From the IMG/VR virus record IMGVR_UViG_2526164662_000035, positions 1 through 19,618 of that record: DNA of 19,618 bases. One strand, 5' to 3'. Made by a program: the position numbers and the translations under genes. Source of the stretch: a virus. Taxonomy: Duplodnaviria; Heunggongvirae; Uroviricota; Caudoviricetes. Of the stretch, positions 2,916 through 19,081 are shown piece after piece; position 1 is the first letter of the stretch; every line of letters starts with the position of its first letter. A model generated the notes under the pieces. The model was given only the letters and a program-made list of their open reading frames with translations, did not search any database and was not told the origin of the DNA.

Positions 2916-3176
2916 AGCACTAATGGGGCTCTCCATGATGTACTGGGGACAATTGGACAAAATGGAAAGGGAAATGATTGTTGAGCGAACGCAGGCGGGA
3001 TTAGCTGAGCACTCACTGGAGGTTGGATAGGTAGCCGTAGGCCAAACCTAACAGATGAACAATGGGCGCAGGCCGGGCGATTAATTGCATCAGGCGTTCC
3101 TCGCCAGAAGGTGGCGATCATCTATGATGTTGGTATATCGACACTGTATAAGAAGTTTCCGGTCGGAGATAAATGA
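2916..3176 (+). pseudogene. Gin/Pin/Hin-family DNA invertase, 3' remnant with frameshifts (catalytic N-terminus missing)
   Basis: Fragments ...MEREMIVERTQAGL... and, in another frame, GSRRPNLTDEQWAQAGRLIASGVPRQKVAIIYDVGISTLYKKFPVGDK* (stop at 3174-3176) match the C-terminal HTH region of Gin/Pin-type invertases as I recall them. No N-terminal YxRVS catalytic part is present. Confidence 0.75.
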
Positions 3177-3216
3177 AACCGTAGCACGTCGTATGCAAGA
3201 AGATCGTGCTGCGGTT
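3177..3216. terminator. hairpin between the convergent invertase remnant and the GIY-YIG gene
   Basis: aaccgtagcacg (3177-3188) pairs with cgtgctgcggtt (3205-3216). This gives 12 bp including one G-U pair and a 16-nt loop, followed by a short T-rich tail. Confidence 0.45.
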
Positions 3217-3236
3217 TATGCTTATCACTTAAAGAC

Positions 3237-4106
<870 letters not shown>

Positions 4107-4184
4107 CTAACCCTTTGAATTTACATAGCGCAAAAAGATACCTTTCCTCATAATGTGAGCTAATTTTATGTTTCGTTTGATGAT

Positions 4185-4251
4185 CGGGTCGGTCTCGAAA
4201 ACCGGAGTAGGGGCAACTCTACTGGGGGTTCAAATCCCCCTCTCTCCGCCA
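4185..4251 (+). other. partial tRNA-Ser(CGA) (serU-like): anticodon arm to CCA end only; prophage/island att remnant
   Basis: cggtctcgaaaaccggagtaggggcaactctactgggggttcaaatccccctctctccgcca matches my memory of the E. coli serU 3' two-thirds with one difference in the variable arm. The 5' acceptor and D-arm (GGAGAGATGCCGGAGCGG...) are absent upstream. Confidence 0.75.
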
Positions 4252-4381
4252 CTTTATCAATGACTTATCTCCCGACTTCCCGCCTTGCTTTTCCTAAACA
4301 GAACAATCGTAGAATATTCTTGAAGGGTTAGATCGTCACTGTTTTCTGTTCGATACTGTGACATTCAGCACTTGATTCGCT

Positions 4382-4585
4382 ATGGATCTGACAGGAAGGT
4401 TTCGAGCGAAAATCTGCAGTTATTCAGTCGTTTTCTTATCGGTCACCATTATTCTTTTAGACATTGATCCTACAAAGCTGCCGCAAAGTTGGTGGTGGGA
4501 ACTGAAGTTGCGTAGAGAAGGGGTCAATACCCGGAGGCACACATGGGCTGGCAAAAGTGTAGCGGTATTAGGCGCAGCTATTTAG
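4382..4585 (+). pseudogene. possible decayed N-terminus of a P4-type (DUF4102-like) tyrosine integrase
   Basis: The ORF MDLTGRFRAKI...DPTKLPQSWWWELKLRREGVNTRRHTWAGKSVAVLGAAI loosely follows the LTDxxIRxxKP...GSxxWxxKYRxxGK...LGxYP pattern of integrases found just downstream of tRNA genes. It is only about 65 aa and the match is weak. Confidence 0.3.
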
Positions 4586-4835
4586 CCTAGTTATGTTTTA
4601 TGAAAACTTGATATCATATAAGTGTCTTACTTATTGGCTGTAAATAAGTTTTTCCTAAGGAATTGTTTCTTGAGTATCATTTGTAACTGTAACGGAATTT
4701 ATAATCCTTTGCTTTATTGTTACGGTATTTTTTATCACACCCTATTTTTTATGTGGTTTTTTATACTGAAGTTTGGCAAAGTGAACTTTATATGCATATA
4801 CTTCATCCTGGTTTCAGTTAAATTGGGTGGATGAT

Positions 4836-5579
4836 ATGGCAACTACATGTTCAGTTATATTGATTTTGGAGTCCTTTGATATTTATTTCGGAAAAGAGAG
4901 TGTGTTTCTGGAGAGAGGTTCATCTGTACTTGTCGACTCTAGCTCTAGAGATTTTTTCCTGACATATCCTGAAAGAGTGATAGTGGCGGATTTTGGCGCT
5001 GAGTTTATTAGTCGCTATTTGAAAGCTAATAACTTAAGGGATATTTCTGATTGTAGGGAATATCCATCTTATTTAAAAATAAACTTTGCTGACTTCAGTT
5101 TAATTAAAGGATTAATTAGTTGGGCTAATCACTGTGCTGAATACATAGAAATTTTTGATGAGTCTATTGCTTTTACATGTCTCTCTGCATTTTCTTCTGA
5201 AAAACAATTTGGAGTATTTCTGTTTGGATGTTTGAAAAGCACAGGGGCTAAAGTTAAAACGATTATTCATACGGATTTATCTGCACCATGGCGTCTTAAG
5301 GATATATCATCAAGATTATATCTCAGCGAAAGTTTACTAAAGAGGAAATTGAAAGAAGAGGGGATATCATTCAGTAAGATCATACTTGATGAGAGGATGC
5401 AAATGGCTGAATATTTACTCAGCACTCGTTGTTATCCTATTAGTAAAGTAGCTAAGGTCTGTGGTTATGCCAGTGTCTCATACTTTACTTATGTATTTAG
5501 ACGTTATTTTGGTGTTTCTCCAAGTCAATACTCTCAGAGGAGTTCAGAAAGTAAAATTCTTACTCACCAGGGAATCTGA
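4836..5579 (+). CDS. AraC/XylS-family transcriptional regulator (AT-rich, horizontally acquired type)
   Basis: The C-terminus carries the twin-HTH signature ...WRLKDISSRLYLSESLLKRKLKEEGISFSKIILDERMQMAEYLLSTRCYPISKVAKVCGYASVSYFTYVFRRYFGVSPSQY. I prefer the ATG at 4836 to the GTG at 4827. The stop sits about 5 bp from the IS end, so the natural C-terminus may be altered. Confidence 0.85.
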   Translation: MATTCSVILILESFDIYFGKESVFLERGSSVLVDSSSRDFFLTYPERVIVADFGAEFISRYLKANNLRDISDCREYPSYLKINFADFSLIKGLISWANHCAEYIEIFDESIAFTCLSAFSSEKQFGVFLFGCLKSTGAKVKTIIHTDLSAPWRLKDISSRLYLSESLLKRKLKEEGISFSKIILDERMQMAEYLLSTRCYPISKVAKVCGYASVSYFTYVFRRYFGVSPSQYSQRSSESKILTHQGI

Positions 5580-5583
5580 TCAT

Positions 5584-5848
5584 TGTTCTTGCCCCCTTAT
5601 TTCCAGACAGGGGGTGTATCTTAAGTTAACGTTACCCGCTGACGTCGATATTCTCGCGGAGAGCGATAACCCAACGCACTGTGCGGATGGTTTTCATTGT
5701 AATGTTCGATCGCCACTGCAAGATTATGCAATGCCGTTCTTACATTCGGTTTCGGCATGAACGCGATGTAGTCTTCCTTCATCGTTTTCACGAATCTTTC
5801 TGCCATTCCATTACTCTGAGGACTGCTGATTACCCATGAGGAGTACAA
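5584..5848 (-). mobile_element. IS3-family (IS2-like) insertion sequence remnant: transposase C-terminal fragment plus terminal inverted repeat
   Basis: The minus-strand ORF 5621-5848 reads ...[27 protein letters not shown]...[19 protein letters not shown], which is the end of a DDE integrase-type OrfB. After the stop, ...tgtctggaaataagggggcaagaaca resembles the IS2 end (...TGTCTGGAAATATAGGGGCAAATCCA, from memory). The rest of the IS is missing. Confidence 0.75.
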
Positions 5849-6068
5849 TTAAACGGGTTAATCAGTTTCTCCATTTGAAAGAAAAAAGACTTCTGTACTG
5901 TTTGATATCACCGCTATTTTCTTATTTTCTGTGCAGGTCGTAGTGGGACAAAACTGAGACACATAAGGCCTCACAATGGCTTGCAAGGCTTTACATGTTT
6001 TGATGTGGTGGGACGTGTGAGCGCAGTGTTGATGGGGTAATACTTTGAATTAGAAGCGGATTCTTATG

Positions 6069-6114
6069 ATTCGTAATGCGAAGGTCGTAGGTTCGACTCC
6101 TATTATCGGCACCA
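6069..6114 (+). other. thrW: partial tRNA-Thr(CGU) (thrW): 3' 46 nt from the anticodon loop to CCA; att remnant
   Basis: attcgtaatgcgaaggtcgtaggttcgactcctattatcggcacca equals the 3' part of E. coli thrW as I recall it. The upstream sequence does not match the 5' half (GCCGATATAGCTCAGTTGGTAGAGCAGCGC). Confidence 0.85.
6096..6114 (+). repeat. attL core: 19-bp direct repeat (thrW 3' end)
   Basis: It is identical to 19063-19081. Confidence 0.8.
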
Positions 6115-6721
6115 TCAAGAAAATCAATAACTTAGCTTAACTTCTCTAAGAAATTGTATCTTCTGTTATCACTTACAAACGCCTATACGTTGTTATGGGC
6201 TTTGGTAGTGTAACACGTATGGGCGAGTAGTTCCCAGGCTCAACCTCGTAACAAGTTCCTTTGAAGCTGGAAGACGTGCCACCGTCTCTAAACCTTCTAC
6301 CAAAACTCTTAGCAAGATGTTCCACACCTGGCGCGGTGTCCAATGATGCTACACGTCGAGATGACGTCGCAGAGGATAAACAGGCTAAATGATGGGAAGA
6401 GTTTTAAGTGCAATAGTGGATTAAAGCCCACCTCTTCAAAACCTAACTTGATCGGGAAAGAATCAAGCTCTAGCACGGTTTCGTCCACCGGAGTACAACG
6501 GGTGCCTGATAAGAGAAGAACTGCTAAGACTTCATAGCTTTTGTGAAAAAGCCCTTTTTAGTGGATATGCCTACGGCGCTTATTTTTTGGTATAACCATC
6601 AAAGGCGCTTTATGGCTCCTATTGTCTTGAAAATGTATCTTTACTTGTATTGTGTTTTATGCGTAGTCTCCCTGTGTAGTATGTAACTTGTTAATTTTCA
6701 TATGAATACAGAGGCAACACG

Positions 6722-6874
6722 ATGAAAAACATTGCAGCTATAAAACGTAATAACCGCAAGATTCACGCTCGTAAGTTCCTGTCTACGCCAGAGGGAAAAG
6801 CCTGGCTAGAGCGTAAACAGCGAGAGAACGAAGAAAGAAAACTCCTTAGTGAGTTGAAATGGCTTAAGGATTGA
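6722..6874 (+). CDS. small basic hypothetical protein (50 aa)
   Basis: The ORF encodes MKNIAAIKRNNRKIHARKFLSTPEGKAWLERKQRENEERKLLSELKWLKD. A GAGG lies about 8 nt upstream of the ATG, and a strong hairpin follows the stop closely. It falls below the 60-aa cutoff of the ORF track. Confidence 0.4.
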   Translation: MKNIAAIKRNNRKIHARKFLSTPEGKAWLERKQRENEERKLLSELKWLKD

Positions 6875-6883
6875 ATCACCAGT

Positions 6884-6927
6884 AGGCGCATAACACATCC
6901 AGCAATCAAAGATGTGTTTGTGCGCCT
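6884..6927 (+). terminator. long hairpin downstream of the 50-aa ORF
   Basis: aggcgcataacacatc (6884-6899) pairs with gatgtgtttgtgcgcct (6911-6927) across an 11-nt loop. The stem is about 16 bp with one bulge. There is no clean U-tract; T-rich sequence begins about 20 nt later. Confidence 0.45.
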
Positions 6928-7019
6928 GATAGTGAAATTATTAAAGTTTTTTAGTTAATGTAGCCATTGCATGAACGATGATCGCTAGTGAATCGATTTT
7001 ATCTCGAGGGGTAAAATAG

Positions 7020-7115
7020 ATGAGGTATATGATGGTAACAATTACAGCTAAAGTAATTGTGGTTCTGCAGGTTTTTAAAATGGATAAGATAAAGCGCATA
7101 GATACCCCCTATTGA
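7020..7115 (+). CDS. candidate small hydrophobic peptide (31 aa)
   Basis: The ORF encodes MRYMMVTITAKVIVVLQVFKMDKIKRIDTPY, and GAGGGG lies about 8 nt upstream of the ATG. The only support is the SD-like sequence and the peptide composition. Confidence 0.2.
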   Translation: MRYMMVTITAKVIVVLQVFKMDKIKRIDTPY

Positions 7116-7424
7116 TTTAACAACAACAAGGTATCATTTATTTTTTATTGCATGCAATGTGCAAATTTTCACATATAATAGCTTACTATTCACTTTGCAT
7201 GGTGTCAACAAGATGATGTGTTGTTTTGTTTGATTTGTTCAAGATAATATTTCATTTTCTCATCTATATAACTTGTGTTTTAGATAATTTCACTAATTGT
7301 AAAAGTTACGTATTGCTTAATAGCTGCCTTTTTATCTGAAATCGGCGCAAACGTGATCAATGTTTAACGCGAAGATCAGCGGCGTCAGGTCCACGCAGCG
7401 ACAATTCTCAAATATCAGGAGGCA

Positions 7425-7976
7425 TTACGCTTCCTGCTCTTTCTTGATACGTTGCACCGTCTGTGTGCTGACACTGAAATCTTTTGCTACGCTCCGAATT
7501 GATCCACCATTCGCGAGAGCGGCAACAATTCCCGCTCGATCAATTGCTTTTCCATTACCACGTTTTGCTATACGTCCAGCGGCCTTAGCTGCGGCAATCC
7601 CCTCACGTTGCCGCTCAAGCATCATTTCACGTTCCATTTGTGCCACTGCTGCAAGCACTGTGAGCATCATATTCCCTGCGGGAGAGTTCTTCCCTGTCTT
7701 AAAGTCTTCTTTATGGAAATGCACAGACACGCCGCGCTCTGTTAATTGCTCAACCGTTGCCAGTAGGTCGGCTGTATTACGGCAAAGTCGATCAATGCTG
7801 TGAACATGCAAAACATCACCTTCACGCACATAGTTCATCATTGCCTCAAACTGTGGGCGCTGGGTATTCTTGCCTGACGCTTTATCTTCAAAGACTTTAT
7901 CAAGAGTTACTCCAGCTAATTGACGGTCTGTGTTTTGTTGGACAGTCGATACCCTAATGTATCCAATATTAGCCAT
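7425..7976 (-). CDS. serine recombinase, resolvase type (183 aa)
   Basis: The sequence MANIGYIRVSTVQQNTDRQ...GDVLHVHSIDRLCRNTADLL...AVAQMEREMMLERQREG...C-terminal HTH (SIRSVAKDFSVSTQTVQRI) is collinear with Tn3/gamma-delta resolvase. I prefer the start at 7976 because AAGGA lies 8-9 nt upstream, whereas the ATG at 7982 is too close to the SD. The C-terminal linker (KRGNGKAIDRAGIV) looks like a resolvase rather than an invertase (GRPPKLT). Confidence 0.88.
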   Translation of the reverse strand: MANIGYIRVSTVQQNTDRQLAGVTLDKVFEDKASGKNTQRPQFEAMMNYVREGDVLHVHSIDRLCRNTADLLATVEQLTERGVSVHFHKEDFKTGKNSPAGNMMLTVLAAVAQMEREMMLERQREGIAAAKAAGRIAKRGNGKAIDRAGIVAALANGGSIRSVAKDFSVSTQTVQRIKKEQEA

Positions 7977-7990
7977 TTTCATTTTCCTTC

Positions 7991-8110
7991 TGTGTTGATT
8001 TGTGTGTAGTGATTATTGATCGTGTTGATTAGGTGTGTAAATGACTTTTTTCACTACGAAATTCGAAGGTTTTTAGTGTGGTGATTTAGCCTGCTTTATC
8101 ACTACACGTC
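7991..8110. promoter_or_regulatory. repeat cluster upstream of the recombinase gene: candidate res site / operator region
   Basis: The direct repeat gtgttgatt(t/a)g(t/g)tgtgta occurs at about 7993 and 8022. gtgtagtgat (8004-8013) is inverted relative to atcactacac (8098-8107). Degenerate copies are tcactacg (about 8051) and agtgtggtgat (about 8073). The position immediately 5' of the resolvase gene matches the Tn3-family res layout. Confidence 0.35.
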
Positions 8111-8174
8111 TTGCATGAGAATCATGTAGTTATGCTTTGGTAAAATTAGCAAGCTATTAAATAGCGTGTTTATT

Positions 8175-8196
8175 TTGAAAAAATTAATTTTTTCAA
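8175..8196. repeat. 22-bp perfect AT-rich palindrome ttgaaaaaattaattttttcaa
   Basis: Read directly from the sequence. It is flanked by an imperfect extension (cgtgtt...aacacg). Confidence 0.9.
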
Positions 8197-8504
8197 CACG
8201 TGAAAGGAACTTGTTCGACAAATAATAGATTGATTTTTAATCAACAATTTCTGATAGTGCTCTGTAAGCCACATTACACAAGGCGCAGCGAAAGTGATGT
8301 AAAAGTGAAGAAAGCTAACATTGCACTTTTAAGCTACTTTTCATTGAATTTTTAGTATGGAATTACATAGGGATTAATCATCAATTAATCTTGAATTTAA
8401 GCCTGTTTTAGATGTTTAATTTTTGATAGCAAGAAACACTTTTAGAAGATCATTGCACAGATGTTATGTGATAAATGGATGTAACGGTAGGTCACTGTGA
8501 ACTA

Positions 8505-8641
8505 CCCCCCACAGAATTCTGTTATCCTTAACTTTTAAAGAAATATGCACCCTAACAGAAAACTGTTACCCCAACCCTAACAGAATTATGTTAGACACCC
8601 CCACAGAAAACTGTTAGCCACCCCTACAGAATTTTGTTACC
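8505..8641. repeat. five iterons (consensus CCC-N-ACAGAA-WWNTGTTA-NCC): candidate replication origin
   Basis: The copies are acagaattctgtta (8511), acagaaaactgtta (8555), acagaattatgtta (8580), acagaaaactgtta (8603) and acagaattttgtta (8626). Spacings are 44, 25, 23 and 23 bp, and each copy follows a C-run. A strongly AT-rich stretch follows at 8642-8710. Confidence 0.8.
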
Positions 8642-8711
8642 TATTAGATCAACTATCAAACTACAATTAAATTATCTTTTATAAATTCTTTTATCTTTAA
8701 AGAATAATTAT

Positions 8712-8746
8712 AGGGATACCCGTTAGGGGAGTCTTCGACTATCCCT
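8712..8746. other. compact multi-hairpin element next to the iterons and AT-rich tract
   Basis: An outer stem agggata/tatccct encloses ccc-gtta-ggg and agtc-ttc-gact hairpins. This was read directly from the sequence and the function is unknown. Confidence 0.4.
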
Positions 8747-9500
8747 TAATCTATTGGCATTCGCCAGAACCTTGCACAAGTTAGAGTGTTAGTCGTTAGA
8801 CTGCTTGTCATAACACATAGTTTTTTGTTTGTTGATGTTAGTTAGTAGATCTATGTTCGCTAATGCCGCTCACAACGAATATGTAATCTACTATGTGCAA
8901 ATAGCCTACGGCTTGCGTAAGGCTAAATAGTCTTGCGCTGTGCGCAGAACGATAATTAACTAACTACCATCTAACGATCATCAATCTATTTAAGAGAAAA
9001 TCTATTGTGCAATACTCTGACGAGTGCAATAACCTTGTGTGCTACGCGTTAGCGATGTTAGCACATAGACACAGACAACAACCAACAACAAACAAAAAGA
9101 ATGGTTTTAGTAGTTGAAGGTTAAATAAGATTCTACCGCTTAAATCAAGCCGTAGGCGAGCTAAACGTATATAAGGTAGGGAAACACTTAGCGGTAATAG
9201 ATTAGCTCGTTATAGAGTTTCTGAGAGCTTTGCAGGTATTTTATAAGATGTCTGAAATTAGATTTTATCTATCATCATCTTCCCATATACCTAACAAATA
9301 CAAAATAACCCCCTTAAATAAGCCTCTGGCGAGCTAAACAGCCATTACATAAGGGAATGTATTGTTTTTATCAAAACCTCGTTAGAACGCGTTTTAGAGC
9401 GTTTTAGACAATAATAAAGAATAGCACTACACATGAGAGCACGAATTGCTAAGAAATATCATAACTTACTGAAAATGATCAATATTTATATGGATAGGGG

Positions 9501-9529
9501 TTGACAAAAGCTTTTAGTCGTGGTAAAGT
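9501..9529 (+). promoter_or_regulatory. sigma-70-type promoter of the early operon
   Basis: TTGACA (9501-9506) and TAAAGT (9524-9529) are separated by a 17-bp spacer. This is the only near-consensus -35 element upstream of the 9650 operon. Confidence 0.55.
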
Positions 9530-9539
9530 AATATTAGGG

Positions 9540-9558
9540 ACAGAAAACATTCTTATCC
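9540..9558 (+). promoter_or_regulatory. iteron-like sequence overlapping the predicted transcription start (candidate autoregulatory operator)
   Basis: acagaaaacattcttatcc shares acagaaaac with iterons 2 and 4 and ...ttatcc with iteron 1. It lies 11 nt downstream of the -10 element. Confidence 0.4.
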
Positions 9559-9582
9559 TCTAAGTAATTAAACCAATGCACC

Positions 9583-9624
9583 GCACTTTGAAGCCCAAGG
9601 CTTGCAAGGTGTCTTTTTCTTTTA
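9583..9624 (+). terminator. intrinsic-terminator-like hairpin and U-tract in the leader of the early operon (attenuator candidate)
   Basis: The stem pairs 9584-9595 with 9599-9611 (aagcc/ggctt plus 7 more pairs, one bulged G, loop caa). It is followed by tctttttctttt. It lies between the promoter and the AGGAGG RBS at about 9637. Confidence 0.55.
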
Positions 9625-9649
9625 ACCAAATAGAATAGGAGGTTAATTA

Positions 9650-9850
9650 ATGAAGTATTACACTCCACAGGATGTAATCGAAGCCTGGAAACGTGGTGAG
9701 ATCAATCGTTTTAAAGTAAGGATGAACAGGAACACAGCGCGACGCTGTGGTTATCCAGAGCGTGAAAAATGCTTTGACGATGCACTAAAAATTATTGATG
9801 AATTAAGAAAAAATGAAAAAGGATCTGAAAAAGAATCTGAAACAGAGTAA
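9650..9850 (+). CDS. hypothetical protein (66 aa), first gene of the early operon
   Basis: A strong AGGAGG SD lies 7 nt upstream. The protein has a charged C-terminal tail and no motif I recognise. Confidence 0.6.
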   Translation: MKYYTPQDVIEAWKRGEINRFKVRMNRNTARRCGYPEREKCFDDALKIIDELRKNEKGSEKESETE

Positions 9851-9869
9851 AGAAGAGAAGGAGAAAACT

Positions 9870-10040
9870 ATGAGCGAAACTACAGAAAAGAAAAGACAAC
9901 CACGCACTTGCTTTCATATTCCTGATGAAGTATTTCAGGTGTTGTTTAAAGAAGCCAGAAGTAAACGTATCACTGTTACAGATTACATTCTTGATATGTT
10001 GAAAAGAGAGGCTGAAACACTCTCAAACAAAAGCAAGTGA
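9870..10040 (+). CDS. putative ribbon-helix-helix (CopG/Arc-like) DNA-binding protein (56 aa)
   Basis: The start at ATG 9870 follows GAAGGAG. The sequence RTCFHIPDEVFQVLFKEARSKRITVTDYILDMLKRE fits a beta-alpha-alpha RHH layout. The longer ORF from 9813 overlaps the previous gene and lacks an SD. Confidence 0.55.
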   Translation: MSETTEKKRQPRTCFHIPDEVFQVLFKEARSKRITVTDYILDMLKREAETLSNKSK

Positions 10041-10093
10041 TTTTTATCACCATAGTAGCGCCGTAGAGCGTGATTACATCAAGGAGATTTTTA

Positions 10094-10663
10094 ATGATTA
10101 ATGAAGAACAATTTGTAAAAGTTCCTATGTGGATTCTAAAAATAAGCCAAGTAAACGGGCATAAATTTACAGATAGTGCTAAAAACCTTTACTGCTATTT
10201 GAGAGGGTTTGATCGTGCATTTCCCTCTTACGCTAAGATAGGCGATGTTTTTGGCATAACACCAAGAGCAGCAGAAGAAAGGGTTAAGAAATTGCTCGAA
10301 ATGGGATTAATTATAAAAGATGCACGACCAGGAAGCTCTAACCTTTATCGAGTGCTTGATATTCCAAAAGGAGAATCATCACTACCTGATCCTTCTGAGA
10401 AAGAAGACGAATCTAATGAAATATTGAATGTTTCCGAAATCATCGTTGAAGAAGAAACACAGGAATCAGAGTTCCCTGAGCGGCCCGAAATTTTTACTTG
10501 GCTTCTTTCCCTTGATAAGAAGAAACCACCGCACGAAGAAACAGAAGATTTTGTAAAACGTGCATTAGATTCAAAGAATATCTATCTTGAGAAACAGGCT
10601 TTTCACGATCTGATAATATCTCTAAGAGAAAAAAGTGAAATATACGATTCAATACCATTCTAA
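10094..10663 (+). CDS. winged-helix DNA-binding protein, candidate replication initiator / iteron-binding protein (189 aa)
   Basis: The start at 10094 follows AAGGAG. FVKVPMWILK...AKNLYCYLRGFDRAFPSYAKIGDVFGITPRAAEERVKKLLEMGLII resembles the N-terminal wHTH of phage/plasmid Rep and replication-O-type proteins, followed by an acidic linker. It lies downstream of the iterons. The functional call is an inference. Confidence 0.55.
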   Translation: MINEEQFVKVPMWILKISQVNGHKFTDSAKNLYCYLRGFDRAFPSYAKIGDVFGITPRAAEERVKKLLEMGLIIKDARPGSSNLYRVLDIPKGESSLPDPSEKEDESNEILNVSEIIVEEETQESEFPERPEIFTWLLSLDKKKPPHEETEDFVKRALDSKNIYLEKQAFHDLIISLREKSEIYDSIPF

Positions 10664-10672
10664 GGAGAATAA

Positions 10673-10942
10673 ATGACTTATAACATCACTATAGGAAACA
10701 AAACTATTGAAATAACTGAAAGCGGATACAACATTTTAAAAGCTATTTTGGACATAGAGTTCTCACCCCCGACAGTGGTTAGCTTTTGTAGTTTAGGCGG
10801 CTACAGCGCACAACATGTGAATCATTGGTTAAACCATTTTACATCGTTCGGTGTGCTGGATTATGAAGGGATTAACCACACTACATTTCGTCTTTTGAAA
10901 TTAAACAAAGATTTTGAATTGTTTATCACAAACAATCAATAA
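10673..10942 (+). CDS. hypothetical protein (89 aa)
   Basis: An AAGGAG SD is present and the gene is tightly packed after the previous one. No motif recognised. Confidence 0.55.
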   Translation: MTYNITIGNKTIEITESGYNILKAILDIEFSPPTVVSFCSLGGYSAQHVNHWLNHFTSFGVLDYEGINHTTFRLLKLNKDFELFITNNQ

Positions 10943-11038
10943 CAACAGATCGGGCAATACATATGGCAAATGCATTTATGGCGATATTCATCGTAACAAT
11001 GGTATCAAGTTTTTATAATCCACATAAAAAGAGAGAAA

Positions 11039-11422
11039 ATGGGAAGAAAGAAAAAGAACAACTTAAAACGTATTGAAAAAAACAGTAACTTCAATTCAAC
11101 AAGACAACGTCCACCGACACACACCAATAACGAAATTCCAGGGGAAGAGATAATATTTATTCTTGAAACAGAATCCCCTGAAATAAGCGATGAAGAACAA
11201 GAAATAATCAAATCAATGCCAGGCGTTTACTTTCGCCCAAGAACAAGAAAACAAACAATAATTTCTGATGGCACTCTGAAACGTTGGCAGCTTTTAGGGT
11301 TTAGCTCCTATCATCATTTTTTGGGATTTAACGCTTTCAATAATTGTGTAGGTGGTGCATCGGAAGTCGATCTGATGGCTCATTTAGAAGCTACATTAGC
11401 TTCTAACAAACGCTCTAACTAA
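11039..11422 (+). CDS. hypothetical protein (127 aa) with a basic N-terminus and an acidic middle
   Basis: The ORF is on the operon strand and starts MGRKKKNNLKRIEK.... No motif recognised. Confidence 0.5.
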   Translation: MGRKKKNNLKRIEKNSNFNSTRQRPPTHTNNEIPGEEIIFILETESPEISDEEQEIIKSMPGVYFRPRTRKQTIISDGTLKRWQLLGFSSYHHFLGFNAFNNCVGGASEVDLMAHLEATLASNKRSN

Positions 11423-11437
11423 TAAAAGGATGGTCGT

Positions 11438-11683
11438 ATGTATAAGCGCCCAATGAAAATATTCGAAAAAGGAAAAATAATGATTGGCTATATTCAAGAA
11501 ACACAATTATTTCAGATGATCCTGTCTGATGCAAAAAACTATGCTGAGTTAATCCGACTGGCAAAAGAAACAGAAGACTACGAAGCATTAGAGCGTTATC
11601 GTGATGAAGTGCTGACGCTCAAGACACCTTTTAACATCGTATTGAATATGATTAATGATGCATTACAAGGAGAAGCCGCATAA
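11438..11683 (+). CDS. hypothetical protein (81 aa)
   Basis: An AAGGA SD is present, and the stop overlaps the next start (ATAATG at 11680-11685). Confidence 0.55.
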   Translation: MYKRPMKIFEKGKIMIGYIQETQLFQMILSDAKNYAELIRLAKETEDYEALERYRDEVLTLKTPFNIVLNMINDALQGEAA

Positions 11684-11991
11684 TGGAAGAAGATATTAGC
11701 AATGCAATGGAACAACTTTTAGATCTGACTATCTCACTACAAACAAGAATAAATCAAGCCTATTCAGATTTATGCGATTACACGCTCTCTCAATGCGTTA
11801 TTAGCTTAATGAAGGTGAATGTAAGCCTTGACGATTTTATCTCTCTGGTGAGCGATTTAGAGCTAATTGAGGACGATGCCAAGATGTGCACTCAAACCAT
11901 CACAGACACCGCCAGCACGTTAAAGGCTGCAAGTGAAGAGATTCAGCAATTAGTAGATGATTTAGCAAAAAGTGCTATTCCCTCTAAATGA
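11683..11991 (+). CDS. hypothetical acidic helical protein (102 aa), last gene of the early operon
   Basis: It is translationally coupled to the previous ORF. No motif recognised. Confidence 0.55.
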   Translation: MEEDISNAMEQLLDLTISLQTRINQAYSDLCDYTLSQCVISLMKVNVSLDDFISLVSDLELIEDDAKMCTQTITDTASTLKAASEEIQQLVDDLAKSAIPSK

Positions 11992-12263
11992 TAATGAAAA
12001 TCATTTGCATTTATATAATAAAAATGTTATATTTGTATTAAGGGTAGATAAAAAGGTTTTGACTGGTGTTAATCCTTCTACTGTCATAAATCCCTGCATA
12101 TGGAAGGTGATAGCCTCAAGGGTTGAGTGGCATTAACCTCTAACAAATATTACCTTCCATCTCTCAAGAAGTTTTAGAATAATCATAACTCCCTCTTTGA
12201 TTGTTGATTGTTTCTACGTTGTGTTGATGAATGTTGTTAGGCATTGTGCTTAATTTTGATAAA

Positions 12264-12308
12264 AGCGGGTAGGTGTTATCTCCTTGCCCTTCCCGCTCTT
12301 ATTTTTCA
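12264..12308 (+). terminator. possible terminator after the early operon
   Basis: agcggg (12264-12269) pairs with cccgct (12292-12297) and is followed by cttatttttc. The loop is long (22 nt), so confidence is moderate to low. Confidence 0.35.
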
Positions 12309-12734
12309 TCTATGCTTATCCTAAAGCTCCTTATTTTGTCCGAAAACATTAAAGAGCCTTACACTGATAGTTATATTTTATAACTATTTACTAACATCAT
12401 TAAACTCTTATTTAATGACAGAAGTTAGTAACAGAATAATCTATTAAGTTGTTGTCAAAAAACTATCATCTGCATAGCGTTAGCCGCAAGCAGAGAGAGT
12501 TTAGCTAAGAATTGTGCAATAACCTTTGGAAATATTGATAGCAAAACGGGTTTTATAGACTGCAAATCTATAATCTTTGGTTGTAAAAACGCTTTTTCTG
12601 AAACGGTAGATTATTGTTGGTGTAGTTAATCCCTATTAAAATTTAATCTGTGAGTAGATTGGAATAGTGATTCCTTAAAATCTGACTGGTGCATCCACAC
12701 CATGAAAGATAGCGGTTAGCCACCGCACCCGAAT

Positions 12735-12790
12735 AGATATTCCTGATTGATTCCGCATGTTTTCCTAAGAGCATGTTTTCAGGAATATCT
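12735..12790. repeat. 12-bp perfect inverted repeat with a 32-nt spacer
   Basis: agatattcctga (12735-12746) pairs with tcaggaatatct (12779-12790). The spacer contains two copies of gcatgttttc, and a third agcatgttt lies near 12815. Confidence 0.85.
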
Positions 12791-12894
12791 GTTCACCCTT
12801 TAAACCTATCTTTAAGCATGTTTAATAAGCATTCTTAGAGATACGTTTAAAACCTCCTCAAGGTTTTACTTATCGCTGTGTATTGCCCGACACG

Positions 12895-12954
12895 TTAATA
12901 AATCCCCCTCGCTATTCTCAGATTGAACCTCTTATAGCCTGGGGGATTTATTAA
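12895..12954. repeat. 14-bp perfect inverted repeat with a 32-nt spacer, about 30 nt upstream of the capsid-module first ORF
   Basis: ttaataaatccccc (12895-12908) pairs with gggggatttattaa (12941-12954). Confidence 0.85.
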
Positions 12955-12982
12955 ATTCCAACATAATGGAATCGTTATATAA

Positions 12983-13192
12983 ATGAAACAAGAAATTATC
13001 CTGAAATATGGCAATGAAAAGTTAACACTAACTGAAGATGTGTTGAATGCTACAGCCTACGCGCTTGGTATCACTCCCACAGAATTAAAGAAACAGTGTG
13101 AACGTCTTTATAAGGCTGAAAGCAATAAACCATCTCACCAAGATTTGATTAATGCTAAAGCTCAACAAATCAAACAATCTAAGGAAAAATAA
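12983..13192 (+). CDS. hypothetical protein (69 aa) preceding the head genes
   Basis: The ORF is on the strand of the structural genes, and its stop overlaps the next start (TAATG at 13189-13194). No obvious SD is present. Confidence 0.45.
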   Translation: MKQEIILKYGNEKLTLTEDVLNATAYALGITPTELKKQCERLYKAESNKPSHQDLINAKAQQIKQSKEK

Positions 13193-13566
13193 TGGCTATT
13201 TTAAAATTAAGCGATGTTTTCCTACATCGTAAAAGCATCACTGACGTAGTGAGCTATGCAACCGACCCTTACGCGGCTGTAGAAAGCAAAAAATTTGCAG
13301 CACTTGCACAAGATGTAACGTGCGGCGACCTCATTGATTCATCCGGCGCTAAATATGTTAGCGGCGCTGATGTTCTTGTCGTTGTGTCTGACTTCGTAAC
13401 TGCTGATTCAAATAAAACAGTTAACGTGCTTCGTGCTAATGCCGGACTCGTTTGCATCAAAGCTGATGCCCTGAATGCCGAAGGCGCTGTAAAAGAAGCT
13501 GCTATTGCAGCTCTCGCTGCTAAAGGCTTCCAGCTTGAAGGCTTCCACTCTGTTTTCACATCTTAA
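13192..13566 (+). CDS. putative head decoration protein (lambda gpD-like position and size, 124 aa)
   Basis: The protein is small and Ala/Val/Gly-rich and sits immediately upstream of a gpE-like major capsid gene, mirroring the lambda D-E order. The call rests mainly on synteny and composition. Confidence 0.5.
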   Translation: MAILKLSDVFLHRKSITDVVSYATDPYAAVESKKFAALAQDVTCGDLIDSSGAKYVSGADVLVVVSDFVTADSNKTVNVLRANAGLVCIKADALNAEGAVKEAAIAALAAKGFQLEGFHSVFTS

Positions 13567-13582
13567 GAAGGAATAAATAATA

Positions 13583-14611
13583 ATGATTATCGGAAATGAA
13601 GTGGTTGATCTTGCTCCACTGTTCGAATTAAACGACTCACGCAATTACCTACTGTCTACTCTGGATTTTACTGATCCTGTGCCTGTAGAAAGTCACAAAG
13701 TGGCTGTTTCCCAGCTTATCGAGAGCAATGAATCTCTGTTCAACCATCCTACAAGCCGTTTTAGCTCTGAGCATAACGTTACTAAGCGTGAGAACGGGGA
13801 AGAATATCTTATTGAAATCCCGTACTTTTTAAGGGAAGACCTGATCAAACCGCAGGACGTGCAAGGCAAACGCAAAGCCGGAAGCTCTATTGAAGAAACA
13901 CTGCCGGATCTGTATGCGGAATATATCGCTAAACACAATGTTGCATTCCAGCGCACTAAAGAAAGCATCCTCGCGGCTTCTCTGTTCTCTGGCAAGACAC
14001 ACACCCCGAAAACTGACGATGTTCTGATCGATTACAGCACTCTGTTCGGTGTGTCTCCAATGACTGCAACCGTTGACGCATCCAGCACCAACACAATGAC
14101 CGTATTCAAGCAATTTGATCAGATGCATACGGATATGATTGCTAAGGCACAAAGCCAGGCTGCAACCATTGAGCGTGTTGTTGTGTTCTGTAAACCTGCG
14201 GCATTCAACGCTATTCGTTACAGCGTTGGCATGGTTAATGCGTTCCAGTATGCAAGCCCTGTAGACGATGCAAACGTGGTGTTTAATGTGCGTTCTCTGC
14301 TGCCTGGTGTAACTACTTTCACCATTCCAGGAACTAACATTGACCTGATCAAAGTGACTGATCCGCTGCTGCTGGCACATATGACCGCTGACGCTGTAGC
14401 TATTCCTAAACTTGCTAAGGGGGCAGGTGTTTACCAAGCTATTTTTGGTGCGCCTTCCAGTTCATTCGATCTGCTGTCTCAAGGCGCTAAAGAGTATTAC
14501 AGCTATGCTTTCGAATCGAATCGCGGCGACGCAGTGCACGTAGTGACCGAGAATAGCTCGCTTGTGGTTAACCACGGTGTTGGCTTCTCTGTGCAGATCA
14601 CAGTAGCGTAA
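13583..14611 (+). CDS. major capsid protein, lambda gpE-like (Phage_cap_E-type), 342 aa
   Basis: Its length is nearly the same as lambda gpE (341 aa). The N-terminal NYLLSTLDF...VESHKVAV and IEIPYFLREDLIKPQDVQGKR segments follow the pattern of E-family capsids as I recall them. The C-terminal ...GFSVQITVA resembles lambda ...FVSVQLA. A GAAGGA SD is present. Confidence 0.72.
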   Translation: MIIGNEVVDLAPLFELNDSRNYLLSTLDFTDPVPVESHKVAVSQLIESNESLFNHPTSRFSSEHNVTKRENGEEYLIEIPYFLREDLIKPQDVQGKRKAGSSIEETLPDLYAEYIAKHNVAFQRTKESILAASLFSGKTHTPKTDDVLIDYSTLFGVSPMTATVDASSTNTMTVFKQFDQMHTDMIAKAQSQAATIERVVVFCKPAAFNAIRYSVGMVNAFQYASPVDDANVVFNVRSLLPGVTTFTIPGTNIDLIKVTDPLLLAHMTADAVAIPKLAKGAGVYQAIFGAPSSSFDLLSQGAKEYYSYAFESNRGDAVHVVTENSSLVVNHGVGFSVQITVA

Positions 14612-14621
14612 AAAGTGTTAA

Positions 14622-14720
14622 AGACGTTCCCCTACGTCTGGAAATAATCGGGGCAATAAGGGTAAGGGATAATCATATAAGCAAAATATGCGCTGTCTCT
14701 TGCCCTTTTTGTTTTTCTAC
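14622..14720 (+). terminator. hairpin(s) and a long T-tract downstream of the capsid gene
   Basis: A perfect hairpin agacgt/acgtct lies at 14622-14639. In addition, gggcaa (14651-14656) pairs with ttgccc (14700-14705) and is followed by tttttgttttt. The second stem has a very long loop. Confidence 0.35.
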
Positions 14721-14763
14721 TGTCTACAAACCTAAATAAAAATATATATGTGAGAGAAAACCA

Positions 14764-14961
14764 ATGAACACAGAAAATTCACAGGCATTAATTCTTAAAT
14801 CTGTAAAAGAACTGGCAGCTATTAGCGATGACTCAATAATCAATGTCAGTGCCTTATGCAGAATGCTTTCAATTGATGCAAATAATGTGCGTCAGCGTGT
14901 CTTTCAGACTGGATGTAGCACTTTCGAAGCAATCCAATATTATTGCTCTAAAAAACAATAA
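14764..14961 (+). CDS. hypothetical small protein (65 aa), possibly HTH-like
   Basis: The ORF lies between the capsid and tape-measure-like genes and has a weak GAGAG SD. No firm motif recognised. Confidence 0.45.
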   Translation: MNTENSQALILKSVKELAAISDDSIINVSALCRMLSIDANNVRQRVFQTGCSTFEAIQYYCSKKQ

Positions 14962-14995
14962 CAAATAACAATCATAATACAGGGAAACAATTAAC

Positions 14996-16837: not shown

Positions 16838-16884
16838 TCATCACTGTGGGGCGGTTTAGCCCCCTTAAATAAGGATTACAAATT

Positions 16885-17562: not shown

Positions 17563-17603
17563 CCTTAAACACCTATGAAACGCTCTGTAACGAGATAATC
17601 ATA

Positions 17604-17635
17604 AAAGAGGCATTAGTCTATATTGAAGCCTCTTT
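17604..17635. terminator. bidirectional hairpin between the convergent structural operon and the integrase
   Basis: aaagaggc (17604-17611) pairs with gcctcttt (17628-17635) across a 16-nt loop. A- and T-rich flanks lie on both sides. Confidence 0.5.
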
Positions 17636-17642
17636 ATTACGT

Positions 17643-18920: not shown

Positions 18921-19020
18921 AAAATCTCCGGCTAAAGTGTCGGAGCGTTTGTAATGTGAAAATTGATTGTGACGCATAGAAAATGATGATTTTTCTATAA
19001 GATTCAATCAATTAGTAATG

Positions 19021-19081
19021 GTCGTAGGTGATGGCATTAACACGAGATTAATCGAGTGTTTTACTCCTATTATCGGCACCA
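19021..19081 (+). other. attR region: interrupted thrW 3'-end copy (gtcgtaggt + 33 nt + actcctattatcggcacca)
   Basis: Bases 19063-19081 are identical to 6096-6114 and to the thrW 3' end. Bases 19021-19029 (gtcgtaggt) match the thrW nucleotides that precede TCG-ACTCC. The 3-nt TCG is replaced by the 33-nt gatggcattaacacgagattaatcgagtgtttt. Confidence 0.75.

Follow-up and report, generated by a model that had tools for sequence, protein, structure and literature searches.

Organization of the island and its control region

The window, that is, the whole stretch of 19,618 nt analysed here, contains a satellite-like island of approximately 13 kb. From position 6069 on, the sequence is 99.9% identical to relative L001, which adjoins tRNA-Thr, and a 43-nt copy of the 3' end of tRNA-Thr occupies positions 6069–6111. 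At the far end, homology to the yagP side of E. coli O157 Sakai, a strain without the island, begins at 19065. The products of the island genes include an integrase, an O-like Rep and three structural proteins (capsid, tape-measure-like and Dit-like), and virulent phages of the phAPEC8/rV5-like kind have structural genes similar to those of the island. Among the island ORFs, neither a terminase nor a portal was recognised. The features that define the island, its control region and its origin are the following, with the strand given where one was assigned:

6069–19064: whole island, ~13 kb, satellite-like, integrated at thrW, where an Sp1-like prophage remnant lies in tandem with it
7425–7982, minus strand: serine recombinase of the resolvase/invertase type, 185 aa (Pfam Resolvase, E = 1.1e-38), divergent from the non-coding region
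7983–9649: NCR1, the complete ORF-free control region, 1.67 kb; the equivalent gap is unannotated in every relative fetched
8205–8495: pre-iteron block, common to both lineages (76–90% identity by blastn)
8504–8642: five iterons of 23–24 nt, each with an internal dyad (ACAGAAnnCTGTTA), from a repeat search
8643–8710: AT block, 85% A+T by composition, the presumed DNA-unwinding element

The control region was found in 732 of 5426 complete E. coli genomes (~13%), and in plasmids blastn matched this island alone, in its E. coli copies. When the D2 box, a repeat described below, was searched for in one genome per species, a single misbinned MAG was returned, so that the element is essentially confined to E. 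coli and its close relatives. No description of a satellite of this type, or of the phased-box sequence discussed below, was found in the searchable literature.

The origin that the initial annotation had placed beside this stretch is borne out, with the five iterons followed by the AT block. The arrangement is that of an iteron-type (lambda O-like) origin, in that tandem iterons and an AT block lie near the gene for an initiator which co-varies with the iterons and which, from the sequence, is predicted to bind them. This protein, encoded at 10070–10663, matches PHROG replication-initiator families (phrog_270, E = 1.2e-8, plus O-like families). Relatives with another Rep type have other iterons, that is, the iteron sequence tracks the Rep type. 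No DnaA boxes were found in 7983–9649.

The control region comprises three modules

The region is devoid of long reading frames, as had been noticed at the outset: no ORF of at least 60 aa overlaps 7983–9649, and the only small ORFs touching it are one of 51 aa (8200–8355, plus strand) and one of 44 aa (9534–9668, minus strand). In relatives, the unannotated gap at this position measures 1.7–3 kb. Alignments were made of 46 unique sequences, 29 of type A and 17 of type B, the two types corresponding to two lineages whose capsid proteins are only 72% identical to one another. The 1-nt and 2-nt indels among these relatives rule out coding for the stretch. A small protein, specified by a 29-aa ORF at 9240–9329, was considered and rejected: the frame is open in three alleles of type A, the S2 deletion described below truncates it and, by our own reading of the alignments, its start codon is missing in lineage B.

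From just upstream of S1 through the leader, every member retains at least ~780 nt, and short conserved islands persist even between lineages A and B. The indels, together with the constraint and the paired hairpins presented below, support the initial view that the non-coding DNA separating the origin of a mobile, phage-related element from its early promoter is functional. The accompanying proposal of structured regulatory RNA or an immunity locus fares less well. Positions 8711–9500 are not a single RNA locus and are instead three different modules, S1 (8711–9134), S2 (9135–9310) and S3 (9311–9500); the four structures singled out initially do not form one system, and P4-style immunity does not hold, as explained below.

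Rfam, which includes the C4/CI antisense RNA family, gave no match to the window or to a type-B relative, at either the gathering or a permissive (E ≤ 5) threshold. When the whole region was compared to phages by blastn, there was no match at E ≤ 1e-5, and at E ≤ 10 the phased-box element of S3 alone was matched; a blastn search with the type-B cassette matched no relevant phage. Within 8711–9500, no sigma-70 promoter scored above background on either strand and no intrinsic terminator was found. A minus-strand hairpin that covers the D2 box is weak (−7 kcal/mol) and unconvincing as a terminator.

S1 is a constrained hairpin cassette

8711–9134: S1, the type-A hairpin cassette, lineage-specific and strongly constrained (fold z, divergence, covariation)
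8713–8745: three-stem palindrome directly 3' of the AT block; an AGTC/GACT stem is kept with four different loops
8866–8879: CCGCTCACAACGAA, one of two short islands still common with type-B cassettes; located in L003
8933–8949: TTGCGCTGTGCGCAGAA island, a GCGC-TGT-GCGC mini-palindrome; 1–2 copies in every member of both lineages
9038–9065: two-tier hairpin TGTGCTA-CGC-GTTA-GCG-ATGT-TAGCACA; three alleles, all 100% paired
12136–12983, plus strand: NCR2, another ORF-poor gap, which precedes the late genes and is far more structured than 8711–9500

S1 is non-coding, 1-nt and 2-nt indels being common in it, and it is without a sigma-70 promoter above background or a terminator of its own. As RNA, positions 8700–9170 fold with a z-score of −3.95 on the plus strand and −3.76 on the minus strand, and none of 100 shuffles folds as well. 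The consensus fold of S1 has 70 pairs and 5 compensatory ones, compared to 0–2 in column shuffles, and an energy of −47 to −51 kcal/mol, compared to −2 to −5 for the shuffles. Pairwise divergence of S1 in lineage A is 0.019 versus 0.062 at capsid third positions, and the corresponding values in lineage B are 0.023 versus 0.158; S1 evolves 3–7 times more slowly than capsid third codon positions, at a rate equal to that of capsid codon positions 1 and 2. The type of S1 changes together with the genes for the capsid, tape-measure-like and Dit-like proteins, and not with Rep, the iterons or the integrase. It thus lies outside the Rep-specific origin module, since it follows the capsid lineage, within which Rep identity ranges from 32 to 100%. 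The type-B cassette is ~0.8–1.1 kb long and contains 1 compensatory pair, no more than its shuffles.

Covariation, proposed as a check in the initial annotation, gave a divided answer, as it supports the local hairpins and does not support the long inverted arms, the three-stem element or the type-B cassette. In the two-tier hairpin at 9038–9065, 3 of the 9 pairs are changed on both sides, and slid controls pair only 26–48%. The three-stem element is present as first described; four alternative loops, 3 or 4 nt long, are found on its retained stem at 8730–8740, and the element is conserved with no covariation. Judging from these alignments, the hairpins of S1 appear to matter more than their sequence. 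The reported inverted duplication has an exact 13-nt core (tttttgtttgttg at 8822–8834 against caacaaacaaaaa at 9086–9098), and its arms fall short of the ~60 nt claimed, extending over 22 nt at 86% complementarity by the search tool and ~35 nt by eye (8822–8856 / 9064–9098). No compensatory changes were seen in these long arms, where A.C mismatches are as frequent as G.U; counts of G.U versus A.C have no power for strand assignment.

Motifs of S1 are present in both orientations. The pentamer GTTAG occurs 9 times on the plus strand, where 1.09 copies are expected, and 3 times on the minus strand. Three C-GTTA-G hairpins lie on the plus strand, and the GTTA- and GTAA-loop hairpins together number 4 versus 0.4 expected. 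The sequence after the AT block starts TAGGGA, and resembles the start of the leader. NCR2 has GTGCAATAACCTT in common with S1. Its fold z-scores are −9.45 (plus strand) and −6.31 (minus strand), it has 13 compensatory pairs versus 2–3 in shuffles, and its consensus energy is −189 on the plus strand versus −161 on the minus strand. NCR2 is almost certainly transcribed.

S2 is dispensable and S3 carries phage-shared boxes

9135–9166, plus strand: D2 direct repeat, copy 1, with an inverted partial copy at 8904–8915
9167–9307: dispensable core of S2, between the D2 copies; deleted in 10 of 29 unique type-A sequences
9308–9339, plus strand: second copy of the D2 direct repeat, the one that both lineages conserve
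9366–9436, plus strand: phage-shared element with three 10-bp-phased boxes, TCGTTAGAAC GCGTTTTAGA GCGTTTTAGA (9379–9408)
17575–17596, minus strand: second, inverted box copy, TCGTTACAGA GCGTTTCATA, just 3' of the Dit-like gene, in the same place and orientation in both lineages

The direct repeats seen initially were recovered as two 32-nt D2 copies with 75% identity, and the inverted partial copy at 8904–8915 pairs with 9146–9157. From the sequence, the D2 pair appears to be a recombinogenic duplication. The endpoints of the S2 deletion fall in varying registers inside the D2 repeat, and some of the islands that have lost S2 (e.g. L040 and L072) retain intact capsid, tape-measure-like, Dit-like and integrase genes. 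The initial annotation held that deletion from otherwise intact copies would tell against a function; such deletion is what was found for S2, and S1 and S3 are conserved.

S3 is conserved in both lineages and is unstructured, the fold z-score for 9171–9500 being −0.36, with no excess over chance. It contains the tandem 10-mer gcgttttaga, present twice at 9389–9408 as first noted and directly preceded by a third, degenerate unit, tcgttagaac (9379–9388). Over 45 nt, the phased-box element shares 91% identity with Klebsiella phage KPN4, and over 29 nt it shares 90% with EscoHU1. At E ≤ 0.05, it has matches in 145 phage records, which are mostly T5-like and also include Stephanstirmvirinae and Vequintavirinae. 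In T5-like phages, including KPN4 and EscoHU1, the boxes are in that part of the terminal repeat which has no ORFs, and in phage non-coding DNA they are always co-oriented with the flanking genes. In the island, the phased boxes are ~92 nt upstream of the −35 hexamer of the early promoter.

The early promoter, its leader and the 56-aa protein

9501–9529, plus strand: early promoter, TTGACA-17-TAAAGT with TG, the sole sigma-70 match above background
9536–9559, plus strand: 5' hairpin of the leader, with 4 of 8 pairs changed on both sides
9583–9623, plus strand: predicted intrinsic terminator of the leader, a stem at 9583–9612 followed by CTTTTTCTTTT, conserved in both lineages

The early promoter is where the initial annotation had put it, and its score of 14.1 compares to a maximum of 9.1 in 3.2 kb of coding DNA. 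The leader is ~85 nt long and ends in the predicted terminator. Both the leader hairpin and this terminator have covariation support, and the putative terminator stem is 99% paired in 13 distinct sequences. No complementarity of the leader (9530–9626) longer than 11 nt was found in the window, with all matches at chance level, nor was there extended complementarity to the ORF-free block or to the island genes.

The early operon encodes a conserved, ribbon-helix-helix-like protein of 56 aa. It is unrecognised by Pfam; its model has a (strand)-helix-helix fold with a pLDDT of 89, and the best PDB matches are Arc, CopG, AmrZ and ParG. Homologues found by tblastn are limited to two Justusliebigvirus phages, with none in T5-like phages, and the early region of phage muut, which encodes a homologue, has no motif in common with the island.

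Interpretation

The favoured reading, to which a probability of about 0.4 is assigned, is that 8711–9500 is the cis-acting origin-flank and promoter-control DNA of a helper-dependent island of ~13 kb, that is, a phage satellite. It builds on the established anatomy, constraint, modular inheritance, phage-shared boxes and leader structure; the functions that we infer for S1 and S3 are these. S1 would be a structured flank of the origin, placed directly after the iterons and the AT unwinding block. When Rep opens the AT block, the conserved S1 hairpins could extrude, and the motifs in both orientations may provide entry or priming sites for the replisome of the host or helper, by analogy with ssiA/ssiB, the hairpins of IncQ oriV, or with the palindrome beside lambdoid origins. 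As S1 is co-inherited with the structural genes and not with Rep, it would be matched to the machinery of the helper and not to the island's own initiator. S2 is a duplication of the left edge of S3, and dispensable. S3, which is unstructured, would control the early promoter from upstream. Its three 10-bp-phased boxes, on one face of the helix, form a candidate operator for a small DNA-binding protein, which, from its structural model, may be the island's own 56-aa protein. A helper early protein is the other candidate, because T5-like and rV5-like phages have the same boxes in their early or terminal non-coding DNA. Transcription that starts at the 9501 promoter is predicted to stop after ~85 nt at the intrinsic terminator, so early-gene expression would require read-through.

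Action at the DNA level is favoured by fold z-scores that are equal on both strands, by motifs in two orientations and by A.C mismatches equalling G.U in the long arms. Several findings pull the other way. That S1 does not co-vary with Rep and the iterons is unexpected for an origin proper, and constraint spread over 260–800 nt is seen more typically in a large RNA than in DNA sites scattered along a sequence. NCR2, which is similar, covaries more strongly and has short motifs in common with S1. An ssi-like role sits poorly with an island that encodes no primase, and a simple operator would be expected closer to the −35 hexamer than ~92 nt. It is equally possible that S1 acts as an RNA made from a helper-dependent promoter.

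A helper-induced long non-coding RNA is a serious rival, if one that is on the doubtful side. Here, S1, possibly with S2 and S3, would be the plus-strand gene for a structured RNA of 0.4–0.9 kb, starting at ~8713–8716, just after a weak −10-like AATAAT/AAGAAT, and its synthesis would depend on a helper phage that supplies or modifies the transcription machinery. The RNA would act on helper or island gene expression, as does the SviR sRNA of the Vibrio PLE, or as a put-like antiterminator that allows passage through the leader terminator. Such a molecule would explain constraint at the level of codon positions 1 and 2 across 260–800 nt, hairpins which survive double changes and loop replacement, the plus-strand bias of GTTAG (9 versus 3), the four GTTA/GTAA-loop hairpins where 0.4 are expected, and the leader-like TAGGGA that follows the AT block. 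It is also consistent with NCR2 of the same island, which covaries strongly, prefers the plus strand and has GTGCAATAACCTT in common with S1, and with the PLE, in which an abundant sRNA is made from an ORF-free intergenic region upon helper infection (10.1101/2022.04.08.487710). However, the block is without a sigma-70 promoter above background and without a terminator, its fold energies are the same on both strands, the long-range arms lack compensatory changes and have A.C as often as G.U, and the single compensatory pair of the type-B cassette is at shuffle level; in addition, Rfam gave no match and blastn shows no complementarity to sequenced phages. A bolder version, in which S1 and NCR2 are both large structured RNA genes, made during helper infection to govern the satellite–helper conflict, with the boxes as a sensor of a helper early protein and the island as part of a widespread family of phAPEC8/rV5-like satellites, seems rather improbable.

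The remaining explanations have less in their favour. As the island has a capsid gene, yet no recognised terminase or portal, S1 or the phased boxes might be a packaging signal by which the helper terminase recognises island DNA. The co-variation of S1 type with the capsid, tape-measure-like and Dit-like genes and not with Rep or the integrase would fit, as would the location of T5-like boxes in the terminal repeat and the two inverted island copies that bracket the expressed genes; moreover, 10-bp-phased T-tract boxes would bend DNA, like some small-terminase binding sites. This is distinctly unlikely, however, given that no similarity to a sequenced phage was detectable for S1 of type A or type B, that known pac/cos sites are much shorter than 400–800 nt and that the same boxes occur in phage families with unrelated terminases. 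It is less likely still that the stretch is largely decaying spacer and duplication debris, with the repeats as by-products of recombination. The loss of S2 in a third of the variants, a module of ~100 nt that is duplicated or lost in some, and T-rich tracts which expand or contract are in keeping with decay, whereas evolution of S1 at a rate 3–7 times below that of third codon positions, retention of at least ~780 nt by every member and short islands that survive between lineages are not. Immunity of the P4 kind, in which a small RNA from an untranslated leader pairs with complementary repeats to cause premature termination, was suggested by the initial annotation through the seqA/seqB/seqC analogy. 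A promoter-proximal terminator and short repeats are indeed present, but the repeats (8822–9408) belong to an ORF-free block upstream of the sole strong promoter (9501–9529) and are not in the transcript, no complementary match to the leader exceeds 11 nt in the window, and there is no Rfam match. On these grounds it was rejected as highly improbable. The least credible explanation is an invertible DNA switch flipped by the adjacent serine recombinase at inverted repeats, even though the 185-aa resolvase/invertase-type gene abuts the region and inverted repeats of 20–35 nt flank segments of 170–230 nt. It too was rejected, as a single orientation is found in all 29 type-A and 17 type-B unique sequences (0 of 46 inverted), and many members without the recombinase, whose gene is missing in relatives such as L003, keep the repeats.

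Approximately 1 in 8 complete E. coli genomes has the island, and its control region of 1.7–3 kb is unannotated everywhere. Should the island be a satellite of phAPEC8/rV5-like phages, which are candidates for therapy, it would provide a tractable E. coli counterpart of the Vibrio PLE–ICP1 pair. Non-coding DNA constrained like coding sequence, a promoter-proximal attenuator and a short, oriented element present in two unrelated families of virulent phages are all testable features. They offer handles on how a satellite senses and exploits its helper, and on the choice between a large structured RNA and a structured origin flank.

Comparison with known systems

The origin iterons of the Vibrio cholerae PLE lie in the same region as the SviR small RNA. 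Like the proposed island, the PLE is a satellite of a large virulent myovirus, and an ORF-free region is tied to the regulation of its interaction with the helper. There is no sequence or protein similarity between the two, and only the PLE has a known transcript. The island also differs in encoding its own capsid, tape-measure-like and Dit-like proteins and a lambda O-like initiator. With satellite P4 it shares an untranslated region with short repeats and early transcription that, here by prediction, ends at a promoter-proximal terminator. In P4, the repeats are inside the leader and are mutually complementary, whereas here they are upstream of the promoter and the leader is without a partner.

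Repeat Region 3, or the injection-stop region, of T5-like phages is an ORF-free region of 1.2–2 kb packed with direct repeats, inverted repeats and palindromes (10.1101/866236). It has the phased-box element of ~45–70 nt in common with the island, the GCGTTnnAGA element being at its left edge. The likeness is limited to this one element: the paired DnaA boxes and TGTGCRAATCCGACA repeats of the T5 region are absent here, and the T5 region is not beside an origin. A scan with the T5 DRD consensus gave no match above chance, and an impression that TGTGC-containing motifs resemble T5 repeats failed on scanning. Operators of the Arc/Mnt, CopG and ParG type resemble the S3 arrangement in that repeats phased at one helical turn accompany an early operon encoding a small protein modelled as ribbon-helix-helix-like; they differ in that the boxes here are ~92 nt upstream of the −35 and not over the promoter.

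The oriV of IncQ plasmids (RSF1010) consists of iterons and an AT-rich segment followed by the ssiA/ssiB hairpins, on opposite strands within a large inverted repeat. The succession of iterons, AT segment and hairpins in both orientations is the same here, while the initiator is unrelated and no RepB'-type primase is encoded. Compared to lambdoid origins, the island has its origin outside the initiator gene, no P-like loader was recognised and a further 400 nt of constrained hairpins follow; what the two have in common is the order of iterons, AT-rich block and palindrome (8504–8745), and an initiator whose N-terminal domain is O-like.

The ORF-free stretch and its features

No ORF of at least 60 aa touches positions 7983–9649 (sequence 7800–9900 and ORF list), as the initial annotation had claimed, and the four structures that it described within 8711–9500 are all present. 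The 13-nt core of its long inverted duplication is an exact match, with arms that the repeat tool extends to 22 nt at 86% complementarity. The labels given to the flanks, an origin and an early promoter, also hold, as seen from the iterons and promoter hexamers. The features are:

8504–8642: five iterons of 23–24 nt each (repeat search)
8643–8710: A+T block (85%), directly after the iterons (base composition)
8713–8745: three-stem palindrome
8822–8834 and 9086–9098: 13-nt inverted core
9135–9166 and 9308–9339: direct repeats, with an inverted partial copy at 8904–8915
9379–9388: degenerate third unit, 5' of the tandem 10-mer
9389–9408: exact tandem 10-mer
9501–9529: promoter TTGACA-17-TAAAGT
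9536–9559: 5' hairpin of the leader, 4 of 8 pairs changed on both sides
9583–9612: conserved leader hairpin, then CTTTTTCTTTT

Self-complementarity above chance is confined to the left half of 8711–9500. Here, RNA folding gave z = -3.95 (+ strand) and -3.76 (- strand) for 8700–9170, and no folding beyond chance for 9171–9500 (z = -0.36). At the far left, inverted repeats adjoin the start of the serine recombinase gene (7990–8110), for example GTGTAGTGAT at 8004–8013 and ATCACTACAC at 8098–8107, which possibly represent a res-type site together with the promoter region of the recombinase.

The island and its relatives

The non-coding region is present in 732 of 5426 complete E. coli genomes (about 13%), nearly always as a single, chromosomal copy. 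One copy, 99.8–99.9% identical, adjoins tRNA-Thr in the relative L001. Homology of the window to this copy begins at 6069, within a 43-nt copy of the tRNA 3' end, and the flanking chromosome picks up again at 19065; the island therefore spans ~13 kb (6069–19064). The DNA to its left (3057–6116) is 98% identical to the right part of Sakai prophage Sp1 and encodes a GIY-YIG-domain protein and an AraC-type regulator (Pfam), and the island therefore stands in tandem with a prophage remnant at thrW. This is the usual insertion site of the family, which is also found elsewhere, such as near yecR.

The island encodes a serine recombinase and a tyrosine integrase (Pfam), an initiator, Rep (10070–10663), matching the PHROG replication-initiation and O-like families, and a major capsid, a tape-measure-like and a Dit-like baseplate protein (Pfam and PHROG searches). 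The structural proteins are most closely related to those of large virulent myoviruses, with 52% identity to Phapecoctavirus proteins for the Dit-like protein and ~25% to proteins of Stephanstirmvirinae and Pakpunavirus phages for the capsid protein. Pfam and PHROG searches recognised no gene for a terminase, portal or tail tube. Judged from sequence, this gene content is that of a phage satellite. No description of such a satellite family was found in the searchable literature, and every relative inspected has an unannotated gap of 1.7–3 kb at the same position.

For comparison, 29 unique type-A and 17 unique type-B versions were taken from E. coli genomes, viral contigs and metagenomes, and blastn between relatives revealed a mosaic. 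A pre-iteron block (8205–8495) is common to members and the iterons vary. The block after the AT-rich stretch exists in two forms, A (that of the window) and B (~1.1 kb), which are no longer alignable except for two short islands, CCGCTCACAMCGAA and TTGCGCTGTGCGCAGAA. The last ~390 nt (9263–9649) are common to both types at 80–85% identity. The stretch was split into three modules: S1 (8711–9134), S2 (9135–9310) and S3 (9311–9500). Indels of 1 and 2 nt are common across the region, and therefore none of it is coding. Three diverged type-A alleles keep a 29-aa ORF open at 9240–9329 (MSEIRFYLSSSSHIPNKYKITPLNKPLAS), but it is unlikely to be a gene: its start codon is absent in type B, by reading of the alignments, and the common S2 deletion truncates it.

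S1 is constrained and travels with the structural genes

Within each lineage, S1 divergence (0.019 in A, 0.023 in B) is far below that of capsid third codon positions in the same islands (0.062 and 0.158; positions 1+2, 0.008 and 0.029), a comparison in which part of the lineage-A sample was retrieved by a 30-nt exact anchor within S1 and in which recombination can uncouple the histories of S1 and the capsid gene. The S1 type tracks the lineage of the capsid, tape-measure-like, Dit-like and p127 genes. Within one S1 type, identities span 32–100% for Rep and 33–100% for the integrase; thus, S1 remains linked to the structural genes while iterons and Rep are replaced around it. Among islands L001–L072, swaps of the iterons and of the Rep gene occur independently of the intervening 1.4 kb (S1, S3 and the first two genes), which implies either recombination events in pairs or strong selection that keeps S1 and the structural genes together.

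The consensus fold of 26 S1 sequences has 70 pairs at -47 (+) and -51 (-) kcal/mol, versus -2 to -5 in column shuffles, with 5 compensatory pairs on the + strand versus 0–2. The hairpin at 9038–9065 occurs as three alleles with different stems, all 100% paired, with 3 of 9 pairs changed on both sides, and a small stem (8730–8740) is retained with four different loops. Taken as a whole, the three-stem element showed no covariation when alleles were compared. In the long-range inverted arms, among them the duplication with the 13-nt core, pairing is 79–97%, with one-sided changes only and A.C as frequent as G.U. In the type-B cassette, compensatory pairs did not exceed shuffles. Neither S1 type resembles any sequenced phage (blastn).

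S2 is a deletable segment

The DNA between the direct repeats is missing in 10 of the 29 type-A variants, and the junctions fall in varying registers inside the repeat, the signature of repeat-mediated deletion. Two such islands, L040 and L072, keep their capsid, tape-measure-like, Dit-like and integrase genes at 98–100% identity, and S2 is dispensable. Other type-A variants have lost 8946–9037 or gained a ~100-nt duplicated module after 8967. Deletion from intact copies, which the initial annotation named as evidence against its regulatory reading, is thus found for sub-blocks such as S2 and not for the whole: the span from just 5' of S1 through the leader terminator measures ~780 nt or more in every member.

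S3, the phased boxes and a 56-aa protein

S3 is conserved in both lineages, lacks a conserved structure and contains three boxes phased at 10 bp (9379–9408; GCGTTnnAGA). Boxes and flanks (9366–9436; an element of ~45–70 nt) match 145 phage records at E <= 0.05. Most of these are T5-like phages, which have the element in the terminal repeat, within the ORF-free part known as "Repeat Region 3" (Davison, 10.1101/866236). Nothing else of the T5 region is shared: its DnaA boxes and DRD repeats are absent from the island's control region, which rules out Repeat Region 3 as a whole. The element also occurs in the Stephanstirmvirinae phage KP13-26 and the Vequintavirinae phage GEC_vB_MG, in early intergenic DNA near TTGAC-type promoter-like sequences. 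Copies lie at L056:2501–2558 (T5-like phage EscoHU1), L057:2501–2544 (Klebsiella phage KPN4), L073:1501–1526 and L074:1201–1233. Its orientation is that of the flanking genes in every case. A second, inverted copy directly follows the Dit-like gene (17575–17596) and is conserved there in both lineages. The box string was not found in the searchable literature. Separately, tandem repeats resembling Fur boxes occur in non-coding DNA of phage muut (L058:278–362) and EscoHU1 (L056, ~2700–2850): GAGAATGATTATCA; AATGCGAATCATTCTCATT.

Direct repeats phased at 10 bp are a typical target of ribbon-helix-helix-type proteins. The second gene of the early operon encodes a conserved 56-aa protein (9870–10040) with phage homologues only in Justusliebigvirus muut and inny and without recognition by Pfam. 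It models as a (strand)-helix-helix (pLDDT 89), and its best PDB matches by Foldseek are Arc, AmrZ, CopG and ParG (probabilities 0.9–0.99, E-values only 0.05–0.5). The predicted fold is ribbon-helix-helix-like, and the protein is a putative binder of the boxes.

Early promoter, leader and a second structured gap

The promoter at 9501–9529 (score 14.1) is the only strong sigma-70 promoter of the region. The sequence predicts a leader RNA of ~85 nt and attenuation ahead of the first gene (9650). The -35 context (9496–9509; AGGGGTTGACAAAA, in relatives AAGGTATTGACA) recurs at promoter-like sites of KPN4, KP13-26 and GEC_vB_MG (L057:2434–2447; L074, ~1345–1360), which suggests that the island imitates how these phages build their early promoters.

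A second ORF-poor gap, NCR2 (12136–12983), lies upstream of the late (capsid) genes and is found only in lineage A. It is far more hairpin-dense than 8711–9500 (z = -9.45 on the + strand, -6.31 on the - strand), with near-perfect stems of 14–21 bp. Among 15 unique homologues there are 13 compensatory pairs versus 2–3 in shuffles, and by consensus energy the + strand is preferred (-189 versus -161). NCR2 is probably transcribed because it lies between co-directional genes, and the evidence that it behaves like structured RNA is strong. It has GTGCAATAACCTT and GCGTTAGC in common with S1, including a 13-mer.

Function of the control region

Our preferred reading, at a probability of roughly 40%, is that 8711–9500 acts mainly in cis as DNA. 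We infer each role for S1, S3, the boxes and the leader as follows. S1 would be a structured flank of the origin: Rep would open the AT block, and the S1 hairpins and two-orientation motifs could then act as sites where the replisome enters or priming starts. That S1 is linked to the structural lineage suggests that it is matched to the machinery of the helper. S2 would be a dispensable duplication and S3 the upstream control region of the early promoter, where the phased boxes may form the operator to which either a helper early protein or the ribbon-helix-helix-like protein of the island binds. Expression of the early operon would be gated by the leader terminator.

The main rival, to which we give somewhat less weight, is that S1 encodes a large structured RNA induced by the helper. 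The broad constraint, the conserved hairpins, the + strand bias and the behaviour of NCR2, with its common 13-mer, all speak for it. S1 has no sigma-70 match above the coding-DNA background, no intrinsic terminator inside and no Rfam match. The sole hints of its strand are weak: GTTAG has 9 copies on the + strand, versus 1.09 expected, and 3 on the - strand; C-GTTA-G hairpins number three on the + strand, and GTTA- and GTAA-loop hairpins pooled number 4 versus 0.4 expected. Little weight is given to S1 or the phased boxes as a packaging signal, or to the stretch as spacer debris. The P4-like immunity proposed earlier is similarly improbable, as the leader lacks a complementary partner and the promoter position is against it. 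An invertible switch run by an invertase also ranks low, since the 29 type-A and 17 type-B sequences include no inverted copy.

Comparison with known systems

The region is best called the control region of a helper-dependent island. New to us are the degree of constraint over several hundred non-coding bases, the inheritance of S1 with the structural genes and not with the adjacent origin, and a short oriented element common to the island and two unrelated virulent phage families, present twice in the island and inverted. The arrangement is comparable to the non-coding regions of PLE and P4, two other satellites, and to iteron origins that have structured flanks.
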